Positions 9,596 to 25,508 of a stretch of 64,000 nucleotides of DNA are shown piece after piece (the first letter of the stretch is position 1; every line of letters starts with the position of its first letter). This DNA is from Alphaproteobacteria bacterium (lineage in GTDB: Bacteria > Pseudomonadota > Alphaproteobacteria > M2410). The stretch spans positions 7,341 to 71,340 of the forward strand of contig SBGZ01000061.1 in the NCBI GenBank assembly GCA_006226415.1. The letters are read 5' to 3'. The translations under genes and the position numbers were made by a program. The notes under the pieces are model-generated. The model was given only the letters and a program-made list of their open reading frames with translations, did no database searches and was not told the origin of the DNA.

Positions 9596-11836
9596 TCAGT
9601 CTTCTCTTAAACTTGCCATCAGCTCTTCCGGGACCGGCAGGAGACCGGCGTCTTCGGCGGCTTTGCGTTCTGCAGCGAGGTGGGCATCTGACTGCTCCAG
9701 CAGCGCTTTGTACCTTGGATCGTCCTGAAGTTCTTCAAAAATGACATCCGCGATCAATTGGGAAAATATCCAGTGGGAGCGTGCCCACTGATCTTCCAAT
9801 GCTTCCAGGGCGGCTTCTTTGTTTCCTTCCGCCATTGCAATGCATGCGCTTAGATAGTCCGTCGTAAAATAGATACCGTCCGGGTCGGCAAGAAGTGTCT
9901 GGTGGATGTATTTCAGTTTATCCAGGATGAGAGCAGCACGCGCCCGCTTCCCAAGCTTTCGGCTTAGATAGAGAGACAGGGTCGCGCCATTGCAGCTTGC
10001 CCCAATGTCATAGTTTGGTCCCCAGCCGTCAGGGTCGGGGTCGTCAAAGTACATGAGCAGGTCGAGGGCTTCCTGGTACTCCCCTTCGCGGGCCTTCCAG
10101 TCGGCCAGAGTGAGCGCGATTTCATGGTTTTTCGCAGCCCCCTCCCGGGCTTCGATTTGCTGGCAAAGACGCCGTGCTGCACTCTCATCTCCAGCTAGCG
10201 TGTATAATGACAACGCCATAACTGGATCAAATTCTTCGAAGACGGCGATATATCCAAGCATGCCAGCAAGGGCCTGGGTGTAATAGAGCGCAACGGCATT
10301 TGCGGTCAGCGCTTCCAAATTCAGCTGCAGGGTCATCGCCTGCGCATAGTGTCCCTTATGCATGGCGATGAGTGATCGACAATAATCAATAAACAGGGAT
10401 CCAGGATGGGATGCCTCCAGCTGGCGGAGAGTGGCGTTGGCGTCGTCCCAATTCTGACGGTACAGGTGTTCATTAAAGACACTCGTAAGGGCGAGCAAGG
10501 AGACCGGGTCTCGCTCGAGTGCCTTGCGCGCACTCGAAAAGACCGGTGCCGAAGGATCCCCGCCCATTTTATGGGCCTGAGTTAAAAGATTGTAACCACG
10601 CGAGTAATTCGGATTGAGGTTGATCGCCATTTCAGCTGAGGTCTGGGCTTTTGCCAGATCGCCGTTCAGCATGTAATACAAGCTCCAAATTCCATGTACC
10701 TCAGCGGCAGTGGGGTCGAGACCTTGTGCCTTTTCCAGAAGAGGCCAGGCGGCGGCCAAAGCTTCTTTCAAAGGGGTCCGGCCATAACAGGAGCCATCGT
10801 CGGAGAGAAGCAGCATGGCATCGGCCAATCCGATAATTGCAGGCGCATAGTCCGGGTCGGATATTAGAGCGGCCTCAAAGTGCTGTTTGCCCGATTCTAT
10901 ATCTTCCCGCGTGCGTTTCCTCAGAAACTGTTGACCCAGCATATAATGCTCATAGGCGCCGACGCTGGCACTGCGGGCCGATTGCGGTGCCTGCATGGTG
11001 CCGCCACCTAGGATGTGATCTTTCAGTTCGGCGACAATGGCGGCGGAGATCTCGTCTTGCACGGCGAAGATGTCATCAAGGGTGCGGTCGTAGGTATCGG
11101 ACCAAAGGTGCGAAGAGTTGCCGGTTTCAATCAGCTGGGCGGTGATGCGTACCCGGTTGCCGGCTTTGCGGACCGAGCCCTCCAGAACATAGGCGACCTG
11201 CAGAAGCTCACCGATCTCAGCGACAGACTTGTCGGTGCCTTTGAAAGCAAAGGACGAGGTGCGGGCAATGACGGTCATCTCCTTGATTTTGGAGAGCAGA
11301 TTGAGCAGTTCCTCGGAAATGCCGTCGGAGAAAAACTCCTGCTCCGGATCCGATGACATATTGACGAAAGGCAGGACGGCGATGGAAGCGTCTGACTTGG
11401 TCTTGCCCGACTTCGGCAATGAGATCGCTTCATTGGGGGTGAGCCGACCGGAGGTCAGATGATGGTCGAGCGCTTGCAGGAGGTCATTGATGCAAGGGGC
11501 CTTGCCGCCGGACCAGCCGGAGAAGTCGATGGTCTGAAGCTGCCGAAAGCCCATGGGCGAACGAATGCCGTCCAGCGAGATCGGTAGCAGGTTACCGGTT
11601 TCCAGCGCCAGGTCCGCTTCGTCGGCAACCCAACGGGATTTGATCGCGTTCGGCGACCAGGCCACCAGCACGACACGGGCGTGGCGCACCTCGGTCTCGA
11701 TTTCTGAGGAAAATCTTGTGCCGCCTTTGAGCTGCCGGTCCCACCAGACGGAATAGCCGGCGCCCTCGAGCTCGGCCACAAGGGGCTCAATGCGCGCGCG
11801 ATCCTCGCTGGCGTAACTGACAAAAATATCGGCCAA
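9596..11836 (-). CDS. TIR-domain protein with a cyclase-type sensor-linker block and C-terminal TPR array (paralog 1)
   Basis: The N-terminus [13 protein letters not shown]...SRWVADE is TIR-like. The middle block [17 protein letters not shown]...[17 protein letters not shown] follows, then TPR-like helical repeats at the C-terminus. The start codon is TTG. Confidence 0.85.
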   Translation of the reverse strand: MADIFVSYASEDRARIEPLVAELEGAGYSVWWDRQLKGGTRFSSEIETEVRHARVVLVAWSPNAIKSRWVADEADLALETGNLLPISLDGIRSPMGFRQLQTIDFSGWSGGKAPCINDLLQALDHHLTSGRLTPNEAISLPKSGKTKSDASIAVLPFVNMSSDPEQEFFSDGISEELLNLLSKIKEMTVIARTSSFAFKGTDKSVAEIGELLQVAYVLEGSVRKAGNRVRITAQLIETGNSSHLWSDTYDRTLDDIFAVQDEISAAIVAELKDHILGGGTMQAPQSARSASVGAYEHYMLGQQFLRKRTREDIESGKQHFEAALISDPDYAPAIIGLADAMLLLSDDGSCYGRTPLKEALAAAWPLLEKAQGLDPTAAEVHGIWSLYYMLNGDLAKAQTSAEMAINLNPNYSRGYNLLTQAHKMGGDPSAPVFSSARKALERDPVSLLALTSVFNEHLYRQNWDDANATLRQLEASHPGSLFIDYCRSLIAMHKGHYAQAMTLQLNLEALTANAVALYYTQALAGMLGYIAVFEEFDPVMALSLYTLAGDESAARRLCQQIEAREGAAKNHEIALTLADWKAREGEYQEALDLLMYFDDPDPDGWGPNYDIGASCNGATLSLYLSRKLGKRARAALILDKLKYIHQTLLADPDGIYFTTDYLSACIAMAEGNKEAALEALEDQWARSHWIFSQLIADVIFEELQDDPRYKALLEQSDAHLAAERKAAEDAGLLPVPEELMASLRED

Positions 11837-23273: not shown

Positions 23274-25508
23274 TTAGGTGGTCTCGCTGGAAAAGTTCCG
23301 GTCTATTTGTTCCAAGTTTTCCGGGCTCAATGGGAGGAGGCCTGAGAGCTGCGCTTTTTCTTTCTCGCGTTCTGAATGCGTGCGATCCCGATCTTGAAGT
23401 TCCTGGAACTCTTCTTCCTGCCATAACGGCTTGAGCAATGGGGTATTGATCAAAACCTTGGCCATGCCTGGCGCCTGGCGCGCAAACTGCCGAGCTTCGC
23501 GGATGGCAACGGCGTGTTCGCCATCCATCATACAAATGCAGGCGCCAATAAAATGGGTACCGCGATGAACGCCCTCGTGGTCGGTCAGATAGACCGAATA
23601 GACTTCTTTGAGCCTGCGCTTGTCGGCATCGGCGGCAGGGGCGTCGCCCTTTCGCGCCTTAATGGCCCAAAGCGTGATCGCGCCGAGGCAGAATTCGTTA
23701 ATTTCAAACAAAGGTCCCCATCCCGATGTTTCTCGGGGTTCCAGCTCGGTTAGAATTTCGTGGGCGGCCTCAATCCGATCATTTAGAAAATGCCAATAGG
23801 CAAGGATGGTCGGCGTTGCATCGGGAACCTCATTCTGCAAAACGGCGGCCATGCGATTGGCGTCCTCGGTCATGCCAAAGAGCGTGTAAATGTTGAAGGC
23901 GGAGCCCGCGTCAAGATGTTCGACGGTTGGGCCATCGCCGAGAGCCGTCATTACCGTTTGCAGGCAGGTACTCCACTGCGTTTTATTAAAGACGTTGAGC
24001 CTAGAAAGGCAGATACTGAGGCATTTTCGAAGCTCGCCCCGGTTCCATGCAATATGAAATGCGCCCCATTGACTGAACATTGAATTGGGCTCAACGACCT
24101 CAATACGTTCAAGCAGTTGTTGTGCTTCGTCATAGCGCATGCGTTGGGGCAGTTCTTCCAAGAGATTGAGAAGGTCCACGCCGGATACGGGGTCGAGGCT
24201 CAGGGCTTTTTGCAAGGACCTGACAACCAGTGCGCGCGGGTTGGCGCCCCGTTTCAGGATCAGGCCCAGCAAACGATAGCCGCGGGCGCAATTGGCATTG
24301 ATGCTGATGGCCTTTTCAACATGGGTTTGCGCTTCGGCCATATTGTGGCCCATGTAGAAGTAGAGGGCCCAAGAGAGAAGGCACTCGTCGGAATTAGGGT
24401 TCAGGCGGGCAGACTTTTCGAGATAGGGCCGAGCTTCGATCAAAGTCTCTTCAACCGGGCGCGTGCCATAACAAATGGGGTGGTTGCTTGATAATAAAAT
24501 GGCGTCGGCCATACCGACTAATGAAGGGACAAATTCTGAATCCGCCTGCAGGGAGATTTCGAAATGGCGATGTGCCTCCTTGATGCTCGCGACGGTACGG
24601 GTCTTGAGGCTTTGCTGGCCAAGCAGATATTCTTCATAGGCCGTAATGGAATGGGCGCGGGTCACGGCTGGCGCGACCGGGTTTACGGCAATGCGCTCTT
24701 TTAAAGCATCCACGATGGCGGCGGCGATTTCGTCCTGAATGGCGAAGACGTCTTCAAGCACCCGGTCATAGGTTTCTGACCAGAGATGACTGTCGTCGGC
24801 CACTTTGATGAGCTGAGCTGTGATACGCACCCGATTGCCGGCTTTGCGCACCGAGCCTTCCAGCACATGCGCCACGCCAAGGATCTCGCCCATAGTTGAG
24901 ATCGACAGGTTCTTGTCTTTGAACTGAAACGACGAGGTGCGGGCTGTGACTTTCAAATTACCGATCTTGGCCAATAAATTGAGGAGTTCTTCGGAGATAC
25001 CGTCTGAAAAGAACGCCTGTTCCGGGTCAGATGACATATTCACGAAAGGCAGAACCGCGATGGAAGCCTCGGGGGTTGCAGATCCGGTGGGCGACCCGGT
25101 TCGGCCGGCGGCCTTGTTTTGTGAAACATGAAAATGGATGGCCTGATCCAGGGTTGTTAAGGCGTGACTGTCCTCGCCCAATTGCCATGTCGTAAAATCA
25201 ATGGTCTGGATTTGGCGAAATCCGATTGGGGCATCCAGAACGTCAAATTTTATGGGGATCAGCTTGGCGGCAGCAAGTGCGCAATCCGCCTCATCTGTCA
25301 CCCACCGGGACTTTCGTGATTCCTTGGTCCAGACGACGATGACGGCTTTGGCTTGTTCGAGCTCTCTTTCGATTTCTTCTGAGAATCGTGAGCCACCGCG
25401 CAGGTCGTTGTCCCACCAGACGGAGTAACCTTTTTGTTCAAGGATTTCGACGAGTGGTTTGACCTCAGCGTGGTCGTGACTGGAGTAGCTGACAAAAATA
25501 TCCGCCAA
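23274..25508 (-). CDS. TIR / sensor-linker / TPR protein (paralog 3)
   Basis: Begins ADIFVSYSSHDHA...SRWVTDE, followed by [20 protein letters not shown]...[17 protein letters not shown] and a TPR-like C-terminus. The TTG start is forced by an in-frame TGA three codons upstream. Confidence 0.85.
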   Translation of the reverse strand: MADIFVSYSSHDHAEVKPLVEILEQKGYSVWWDNDLRGGSRFSEEIERELEQAKAVIVVWTKESRKSRWVTDEADCALAAAKLIPIKFDVLDAPIGFRQIQTIDFTTWQLGEDSHALTTLDQAIHFHVSQNKAAGRTGSPTGSATPEASIAVLPFVNMSSDPEQAFFSDGISEELLNLLAKIGNLKVTARTSSFQFKDKNLSISTMGEILGVAHVLEGSVRKAGNRVRITAQLIKVADDSHLWSETYDRVLEDVFAIQDEIAAAIVDALKERIAVNPVAPAVTRAHSITAYEEYLLGQQSLKTRTVASIKEAHRHFEISLQADSEFVPSLVGMADAILLSSNHPICYGTRPVEETLIEARPYLEKSARLNPNSDECLLSWALYFYMGHNMAEAQTHVEKAISINANCARGYRLLGLILKRGANPRALVVRSLQKALSLDPVSGVDLLNLLEELPQRMRYDEAQQLLERIEVVEPNSMFSQWGAFHIAWNRGELRKCLSICLSRLNVFNKTQWSTCLQTVMTALGDGPTVEHLDAGSAFNIYTLFGMTEDANRMAAVLQNEVPDATPTILAYWHFLNDRIEAAHEILTELEPRETSGWGPLFEINEFCLGAITLWAIKARKGDAPAADADKRRLKEVYSVYLTDHEGVHRGTHFIGACICMMDGEHAVAIREARQFARQAPGMAKVLINTPLLKPLWQEEEFQELQDRDRTHSEREKEKAQLSGLLPLSPENLEQIDRNFSSETT

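Follow-up and report, generated by a model that had tools for sequence, protein, structure and literature searches.

Here we describe three neighbouring genes, p1, p2 and p3, found in a 64,000-nucleotide (nt) window of the genome of an Alphaproteobacteria bacterium (GCA_006226415.1, contig SBGZ01000061.1, positions 7,341-71,340 of the forward strand). They belong to an uncharacterised family of sensor-effector proteins, soluble and cytoplasmic by prediction, and diverged from one another long ago; in each single-chain protein, a TIR domain is followed by a conserved α/β core and by a divergent half made of tetratricopeptide repeats (TPR). As to their function, we tentatively propose, at somewhat less than an even chance, that a trigger induces the assembly of the TIR domains and the cleavage of NAD+ in a phage defence of the abortive-infection type. 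Existing annotation describes the three proteins only as 'TIR domain-containing protein'; the NCBI/Logan entries P0001, P0057 and P0033 are identical to p1, p2 and p3, respectively, and the last of them is recorded as 'MAG: TIR domain-containing protein [Alphaproteobacteria bacterium]' (MAG, metagenome-assembled genome). The genes and their parts, in window coordinates and with lengths in amino acids (aa), are the following:

p1: 9596-11836, minus strand, 746 aa, long form with TIR_2 and TPR
Parts of p1, minus strand: TIR domain, aa 1-112 (nt 11501-11836); tether, aa 113-149; α/β 'TolB-like' subdomain, aa 150-276 (nt 11009-11389); helical/TPR sensor, aa 277-746 (nt 9599-11008)
p2: 20164-22035, minus strand, 623 aa, typical short form, open reading frame (ORF) extendable to 22077
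Parts of p2, minus strand: TIR domain, nt 21700-22035; α/β subdomain, nt 21232-21612; TPR sensor, nt 20167-21231
p3: 23274-25508, minus strand, 744 aa, long form with TIR_2 and TPR
Parts of p3, minus strand: TIR domain, nt 25173-25508; α/β subdomain, nt 24687-25067; TPR sensor, nt 23277-24686

The N-terminal domain is recognised in all three copies by the Pfam family PF13676 (TIR_2), with E values of 1.6e-24 (p1), 4.2e-24 (p2) and 4.2e-25 (p3) and 86-89 bits against a cut-off of 28, and AlphaFold2 (AF2) gives it the secondary structure βαβαβ. Every copy carries SRWV(A/T)DEAD, whose W69...E73 aligns with the W-x-x-x-E motif of AbTIR (DWTNYELD). The nearest TIR relatives of solved structure are this NADase (7uwg/8g83; E 1e-6) and PdTIR, and S-x-W-x-x-x-E is intact in 141/141 of the family members examined, from both Alpha- and Gammaproteobacteria. 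On the strength of this motif, with Glu73 as the catalytic residue, the TIR domains are predicted NAD+ glycohydrolases, for which we infer cleavage itself.

Beyond the TIR domain, the AF2 models of p1 (pLDDT 88.8, pTM 0.81) and p2 (pLDDT 89.3), built with 61-67 homologs, share one layout: a helix and a flexible, low-confidence tether of ~35 residues, an α/β domain with a three-stranded antiparallel sheet, and an unbroken helical solenoid. In Foldseek, both models match the periplasmic sensor of E. coli CadC (3LY7, 3LY8, 3LY9 and 3LYA) with probability 1.00, the TM-scores normalised to CadC (TMt) being 0.63-0.65 for p1 and 0.66-0.68 for p2; these alignments span 314-352 columns at a root-mean-square deviation of 4.3-5.8 Å (4.3-5.0 for p2), and the other matches are generic TPR proteins. 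At the sequence level, Pfam finds several TPR families scattered along each paralog and a weak FlgO/TolB-like match over the stretch that the preliminary description had called a 'linker block'. The NCBIfam models for CadC (NF007540, 26.7 bits, cut-off 400) and HilA (NF009037, 29.4 bits, cut-off 589) match aa ~120-450 below their cut-offs, and the relation to CadC is one of remote homology or of shared fold only. According to the models, the 'linker block' is not a linker at all; it is the folded α/β subdomain of a CadC-type two-subdomain sensor with a helical bundle, and it is the best-conserved part of the protein (87-98% identity between orthologs).

Since none of the three proteins has a hydrophobic or transmembrane segment (maximum KD19 1.07-1.44), they are predicted to be soluble and cytoplasmic. 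A secreted virulence factor of the Tcp type was considered and ruled out, as there is neither a signal peptide nor a transmembrane segment, the TIR domain is N-terminal and the hosts are free-living. Scans of p1, p2 and p3 with Pfam, NCBIfam and PADLOC found no NTPase family (NACHT, NB-ARC or AAA), residues 150-276 holding the TolB-like α/β domain instead. The PADLOC matches cover the TIR domain only (aa 1 to ~137), the best being with the SPARTA TIR, PDC-S66, TIR-SAVED and ThsB models (Aga_TIR E 3e-15). The genes do not belong to Thoeris, SPARTA, CBASS TIR-SAVED or PDC-S66, as no ThsA, Argonaute, CD-NTase or other partner stands among their neighbours.

When the paralogs are compared with one another, the conservation of the head and the divergence of the sensor are evident, as the preliminary description had anticipated. 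Pairwise tblastn aligns p1 with p3 over 744 aa (40.9% identity, E 2e-170), p1 with p2 over aa 1-505 (46.6%, E 1e-124) and p2 with p3 over aa 1-400 (47.3%, E 1e-106), and the amino acid identity is distributed among the domains in the following way:

TIR, aa 1-112: 57-69%
Tether, ~aa 113-149: 15-21%
α/β block, ~aa 150-276: 72-75%
First TPR part: 18-39%
C-terminus: 13-26%

The near-identity in long runs that had been claimed for the first ~275 residues is true of the two blocks, and in the second of them (aa 150-276) runs of 17 aa and 19 aa are identical in all three copies, but it does not extend to the tether that lies in the same stretch. Similarity is visible at the nucleotide level as well, as had been said, but it is modest: 69-74% identity over the best 263-nt block, with longest exact matches of 17, 15 and 11 nt. 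The asymmetry between a conserved head and a TPR half at 13-39% is not a peculiarity of this window; in 16 adjacent-paralog pairs from 11 other genomes the median identity is 71% for the TIR domain, 66% for the middle block and 37% for the C-terminus, and the conserved-head/divergent-repeat pattern is family-wide. As for its length, p2 falls short of p1 and p3 by 121-123 aa, somewhat more than the ~110 aa first estimated. Its size is that of the typical family member (median 598 aa; 560-660 aa in 70/86), whereas the ~740-aa form occurs in only 6/86; the possibility that p2 is a truncation was ruled out for this reason.

The divergence of the three copies is deep. Synonymous sites are saturated in all pairs, with a synonymous divergence (pS) of 0.59-0.92 in every 40-codon window, and p1, p2 and p3 have, respectively, 33, 6 and 24 foreign sequences that resemble them more closely than any paralog of the window does. 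In the nearest genome, the MAG 'Alphaproteobacteria bacterium M3011', there are same-locus orthologs of all three genes (p1 in locus L001, 70% identity; p2 and p3 in L003, 76% and 73%), plus a fourth paralog elsewhere, and the block p3–DUF4242–DUF6629–p2–NMO is kept. Between the two genomes, identity is 72-90% in the TIR domain and 57-78% in the TPR half, next to the 87-98% of the α/β block. The ratio dN/dS, a check that the preliminary description had asked for, is low in these orthologs (ω ~0.02-0.18 where measurable, hence purifying). Furthermore, the divergence from M3011 at four-fold sites is 0.41-0.63 for the family genes and 0.40-0.60 for the flanking housekeeping genes, and because the former equals the latter the family genes were inherited vertically with the chromosome. 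The N- and C-terminal halves of p1 and its M3011 ortholog, o1, have four-fold divergences of 0.41 and 0.63; the replacement of a sensor cassette was considered and is not claimed, both values being regarded as inside the range of the flanking housekeeping genes.

By these comparisons, the duplications are ancient and each paralog belongs to a separate old lineage. The sensors did not diversify in place, given the outside sequences that are nearer to each copy than its window paralogs. In turn, the warning that the copies offer a substrate for recombination does not hold for the window, where pS is high, exact matches do not exceed 17 nt and the arrangement has been stable over 0.4-0.6 of four-fold genome divergence. 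The marks of concerted evolution, i.e., low synonymous divergence or long identical tracts, are absent from the window and present in a pair from another genome (locus L012, 10001-13441), in which pS is 0.03-0.07 in codons 1-80 vs 0.6-0.86 downstream; this pattern is one of 5′ gene conversion or head-domain homogenisation, with a weaker signal in loci L007 and L036. The concern fails for the window, yet it is not baseless in the family. That p1, p2 and p3 are recent duplicates or artefacts, their similarity being kept by gene conversion and deletion or promoting them, is refuted for the window and has next to no probability left: such a view could draw on the common strand, on the spacing within 16 kb, on the single block of 69-74% nucleotide similarity and on the reality of 5′ conversion in the L012 array, but it is contradicted by the saturated pS and short exact matches, by the orthologs of each copy at the same M3011 loci, by the many nearer foreign sequences and by a p3-p2 arrangement that is identical in two independent assemblies. 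Indeed, the order katG–p3–DUF4242–DUF6629–p2–NMO is present in two independent Logan assemblies, and this, together with the same arrangement in M3011, settles the doubt about assembly artefacts that had been raised at the outset: the copies are real.

In the homolog search, full-length relatives come mostly from MAGs of Alphaproteobacteria, and two TIR peptide patterns run over the GTDB species representatives retrieved at least 334 loci, in Alpha- and Gammaproteobacteria; a search with the TIR domain alone returned nothing but short fragments. The α/β+TPR part is found elsewhere under different heads: a class III adenylate cyclase (PF00211, ~1030 aa), a Ser/Thr kinase (PF00069, ~1200 aa), or an N-terminal hairpin of two transmembrane helices (2TM) that replaces the TIR domain (~690 aa; P0020, P0041 and P0043). 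The C-terminal half of p3 is 45-46% identical to 2TM-headed proteins vs 22-39% to p1, and that of p1 is 45% identical to the 2TM-headed P0020; by these alignments, the sensor halves define old lineages crossing head types. In plasmids, tblastn gave 590 records, nearly all of them adenylate/guanylate cyclase domain-containing proteins on rhizobial chromids, with a sensor-only match of ~36%. No published work on the TolB-like/TPR module in cyclases was found in literature searches.

Multiplicity is a recurrent feature of the family. Two or more copies are present at 17/80 loci, and they can form abutting arrays of 2-5 genes, in which stops and starts touch (four genes in locus L025, 1189-8850; five in L036 of Marinicaulis, 3244-13498), while L086 has three copies inside 18 kb. 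A TIR-only protein of 127 aa (P0126) and an α/β+TPR protein of 579 aa that begins with MSSDPEQ (P0051) both have a longest Logan contig of 16,357 nt; they look like a split version of the family and could represent either a natural two-gene form or a frameshift.

No conserved partner gene was found for these proteins. All-vs-all clustering of 4385 ORFs from 80 loci and the window revealed no conserved non-self neighbour, a further family copy being the sole recurrent one; the other clusters in the 80 loci are antisense ORFs of the family, a NUDIX-like ORF (9 loci) and an LptB-like ORF (8 loci), and the recurrence of the last two is probably a matter of lineage synteny. Because no such neighbour is conserved, each gene looks like a single-gene unit, as already proposed, but the full independence implied by that proposal must be given up, since the three genes share a promoter-like element:

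Promoter-like element of p1: 11881-11911, minus strand, TTGACC-N18-CTTATTT, 45-75 nt 5′ of the TTG start, conserved at o1
Promoter-like element of p2: 22076-22106, minus strand, in the gap after DUF6629, with a related element at the M3011 ortholog o2
Promoter-like element of p3: 25554-25584, minus strand, in the p3/katG intergenic region, conserved at the M3011 ortholog o3

The common form, TTGACC-N18-YTTATYT, lies 41-75 nt 5′ of each TTG start and, with up to one mismatch, has only three matches in the 64 kb, where 0.22 would be expected; 0/100 shuffles reached three. It reads as a −35 box TTGACC, a 17-nt spacer and a weak −10 box (TCTTAT or TTTTAT), and it was missed by a generic sigma-70 scan, the −10 box having no A at position 2. 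Beyond the window and the M3011 orthologs, no other family gene has the element. No riboswitch or other RNA element was detected in the 5′ regions, tRNA-Thr being the only Rfam match in the window.

All three genes start with a TTG codon followed by ADIFVSY, and the same start codon is used by 7/7 family genes of the two genomes (three in the window and four in M3011, in L001, L002 and L003); elsewhere, 70/100 family genes start with ATG. These TTG starts are consistent with a low expression of a potentially toxic protein. In the case of p2, the start at 22035 is favoured over that at 22077 because the −10 box of the promoter-like element overlaps the alternative TTG. A Shine-Dalgarno-like GAAGGG is located unusually far, ~13-15 nt, 5′ of the TTG start.

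Apart from the three complete genes, the window contains the remains of another:

Remnant of a fourth family copy: 16563-16694, minus strand, ~44 codons of the α/β block (FVNMSSSPKQEFLSDGISQEHLNLLTKFSELT...)

This intergenic piece, with a KefB-like gene on one side and a nitroreductase gene on the other, is 59% identical to aa 157-200 of p1 in tblastn (E 5e-10) and 73% identical to p1 at the nucleotide level; stop codons break its frame, and residues otherwise invariant in the family are mutated.

The flanking genes named in the preliminary description agree with Pfam at the three loci: an α/β hydrolase and the DEAD-box helicase rhlE for p1, a DUF6629 membrane protein and NMO for p2, and a SCO4226-like/DUF4242 protein and katG for p3. 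The NMO gene (19190-20167, plus strand) converges with p2, with a 4-nt overlap at the 3′ ends (20164-20167). Between p1 and p2 stand a tandem-Usp protein (13649-14614, minus strand), a KefB-like K+/H+ antiporter with a TrkA-N domain (14824-16521, plus strand) and a nitroreductase (16786-17463, plus strand); with katG and NMO added, the region has a stress/redox character. The catalase-peroxidase gene katG (25796-27991, plus strand) is divergent from p3, and since M3011 has no katG at that position, with only ~150 bp between the syntenic blocks, the katG-p3 linkage is not conserved. A small SCO4226-like/DUF4242 gene lies, convergent, directly 3′ of the p3-type gene in the window (22976-23245, plus strand), in L003 (12251-12517) and in L086 (10259-10525), with 74-93% identity; this adjacency is confined to three related genomes and absent from the rest of the family loci, and is probably retained synteny. 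Near p2 there are two genes for small, N-terminally anchored membrane proteins, a 158-aa ORF that belongs to no family (17506-17982, minus strand) and a DUF6090 protein (18252-19028, minus strand). Weak homologs of both (24-32%, E 1e-12 to 1e-18) adjoin family genes in distant MAGs of Gammaproteobacteria and Marinicaulis (L016/L035 at ~11860-12350; L010 at 7939-8436), in two or three independent co-occurrences.

From the perspective of genome dynamics, p1 sits between two spots that vary between the window and M3011. On one side, the segment 6608-9590, between tRNA-Thr (6532-6607) and p1, is absent in M3011, where the p1 ortholog abuts tRNA-Thr; this ~3-kb insert holds the genes for a lipoprotein whose C-terminus is TPR-like (6723-8381, LVGGC lipobox) and for the α/β hydrolase (8585-9589), and it looks like a tRNA-linked variable spot. 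On the other, M3011 has a 5.3-kb insert directly upstream of its p1 ortholog (L001, 4189-8624) that is absent from the window and codes for a 606-aa weakly NlpC/P60-like protein, a 568-aa fusion of caspase (Peptidase_C14) and FGE-sulfatase, and a 273-aa protein with a phage-lysozyme domain; these are genes of the conflict-system type, adjoining a TIR gene. Moreover, a GmrSD_N/DUF262 gene (3115-4158, plus strand; PADLOC NsnA E 3.8e-62, PD-T4-2_A E 1.6e-48) belongs to an insert at ~2976-4720, absent from M3011 and coinciding with a bin of low GC content (2001-4000, GC 0.48), which is probably a small acquired defence islet. A 161-aa ORF with no family match (4148-4633) overlaps the 3′ end of the DUF262 gene.

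Several described systems share part of this organisation. The E. coli 'TIR-II' protein, which protects against phages and was reported as the most widespread TIR system (Nat Commun 2024, PMC11350192), also combines TIR and TPR in one polypeptide with no obligatory partner gene, a likeness by domain labels only; its description has no CadC-like α/β subdomain, ~30% of its members have an ATPase and it is also found in phages, whereas the family of p1, p2 and p3 has no ATPase and no phage copies were found. BcTir/Tpr of Bacillus cereus, for which antiphage activity was described, has a NAD+-cleaving head controlled by a C-terminal TPR (bioRxiv 10.1101/2023.05.26.542521), but it consists of two genes, its NADase head, that of BcTpr, is distinct from the TIR protein and there is no CadC-like α/β subdomain. 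The closest TIR sequences, those of AbTIR, PdTIR and SPARTA TIR-APAZ, are stand-alone, associated with coiled coils or fused to APAZ with a short Argonaute, and none carries a sensor of this type. The STAND/NLR proteins (Avs, bNACHT, TIR-NLR) share the logic of a single gene with an N-terminal TIR and a paralog-specific C-terminal repeat sensor; however, their centre is an NTPase (NACHT/NB-ARC/AAA), where p1, p2 and p3 have the CadC-like α/β domain, and the latter are not in defence islands. CadC and HilA have the same succession of an N-terminal output domain, an α/β subdomain and a helical bundle in one chain, but their output is a winged helix and, in CadC, the sensor is periplasmic and membrane-anchored, unlike the TIR output, the long TPR solenoid and the lack of a transmembrane segment in p1, p2 and p3. 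Lastly, the rhizobial cyclase-TPR proteins, which are multi-copy per replicon, have a homologous α/β+TPR part (~36% over aa 130-502 of p2, E to 1e-51); they and the Ser/Thr kinase-TPR relatives reach ~1000-1200 aa and bear a cyclase or kinase head instead of TIR. In sum, p1, p2 and p3 resemble the single-protein TIR-TPR sensors but use a CadC-type core, and they fail to fit any PADLOC system, STAND/NLR, or CadC/HilA proper.

In the mechanism that we favour, the TPR/CadC-like half of each paralog would bind its own trigger, which may be a small ligand or a protein of foreign, for example phage, origin, and binding would make the conserved core self-associate. The TIR domains gathered in this way would form the composite active site that TIR enzymes require, and NAD+ would be cleaved, its depletion and/or an ADP-ribose-derived product leading to the arrest of the cell; the three genes would then constitute a small repertoire of different sensors under separate but homologous promoters. 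Dimers or oligomers are the only forms in which heads found on this scaffold are known to be active: class III cyclases build their active site across the dimer, activators of the ToxR/CadC type function as dimers and self-association is required by TIR NADases. The exchange of effectors, such as TIR for 2TM, is typical of abortive-infection systems (CBASS, Pycsar and Thoeris), and it is because the head exchange of this family mirrors those swaps that we lean toward abortive infection. Also in favour of this reading are the single-protein TIR-II precedent, the divergent sensors, multi-copy arrays and dead copy of the family, the lack of a conserved partner gene, the shared promoter-like element, the DUF262 insert of the window and, beside p1, the variable spots with the caspase fusion and lysozyme-domain gene of M3011.

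A number of observations weigh against a role in defence. The proteins are devoid of the NTPase/STAND module that would serve oligomerisation, and no PADLOC defence model matches them outside the TIR domain. The family has no relatives in 2.9 M IMG/VR viral contigs or in 50,697 INPHARED/GenBank phage records; carriage by phages or plasmids was considered and set aside, the plasmid matches being almost all cyclase relatives on rhizobial chromids. The genes are inherited vertically in conserved synteny, and the low ω of the orthologs indicates purifying selection, weaker on some sensors (p1), and not diversifying selection. In the window, the immediate neighbours are stress or housekeeping genes, and 5/6 of the distant homolog neighbourhoods inspected hold plain housekeeping/stress genes with no defence island or mobile element. 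Furthermore, hundreds of rhizobial adenylate/guanylate cyclases carry a homologous sensor module (~36% identity), and Ser/Thr kinases have it as well, which points to ordinary signal transduction.

Several of these points would be accommodated by a non-immune, one-component control of signalling or stress, which we regard as possible though rather unlikely. According to it, the CadC-like/TPR module would sense an endogenous or environmental small molecule or a protein state, and the TIR domain would be one of several interchangeable outputs (winged helix, class III cyclase, Ser/Thr kinase, TIR), tuning NAD+ or making an ADP-ribose-derived messenger in order to slow growth under stress. What keeps this role alive is the existence of relatives with cyclase and kinase heads, along with inheritance by vertical descent and a setting among housekeeping genes. 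In particular, the sensor fold matches the pH/cadaverine sensor of CadC, with the weak CadC/HilA family matches alongside; the same α/β+TPR scaffold is borne by PF00211 cyclases, PF00069 kinases and the rhizobial cyclases of the 590 plasmid/chromid records; synteny is stable and selection purifying; katG, Usp, KefB-like, nitroreductase and NMO genes stand nearby; the distant homologs are solitary among core genes (ATP synthase, recA/alaS, propionyl-CoA carboxylase, PBP1/cop genes); and the α/β block is better conserved than the enzyme domain. Nevertheless, no receptor or effector for a TIR-made signal lies nearby in the 80 loci, the TIR/2TM head swap, the multi-copy arrays and the dead copy suit conflict genes better, and the linkage to stress genes is not conserved, katG being absent at the M3011 position. 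Moreover, we know of no established case in bacteria in which TIR signalling has a physiological, non-immune role.

A broader formulation, to which we grant a still smaller likelihood, takes the CadC-like α/β+TPR module as a general cytoplasmic one-component scaffold, whose heads (TIR, 2TM hairpin, class III cyclase, Ser/Thr kinase and winged helix) would be switched by sensor-driven dimerisation; the TIR versions would be vertically inherited, co-regulated housekeeping sensors with NAD+ cleavage as a non-immune output, and TIR-headed paralogs might co-assemble in order to integrate several inputs. Far less probable is that the TIR domain acts as a non-enzymatic adaptor and that the paralogs co-assemble through TIR-TIR contacts without NAD+ chemistry. 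Animal TIR adaptors do work through protein-protein contacts, and the several paralogs with similar TIR domains per genome, as well as the abutting, co-transcribed arrays of other genomes, would suit such a role, but S-x-W-x-x-x-E is kept in every member examined and the nearest TIR domains of known structure belong to active NADases.

In bacteria, plants and animals alike, TIR enzymes hold a central place in immunity, and little is understood of how a TIR head is activated when neither a STAND ATPase nor a second-messenger receptor is present. The family described here places the TIR domain on a scaffold otherwise known from the CadC/HilA transcription factors, cyclases and kinases. If p1, p2 and p3 are immune sensors, as we tentatively favour, they would amount to a repertoire of the NLR kind that dispenses with the NTPase; should they turn out not to be immune, TIR would for the first time be seen to serve as an ordinary signalling output. 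Were the general scaffold formulation true, the TIR domain would stand as a bona fide output of bacterial signal transduction, beyond its role as immune executioner.

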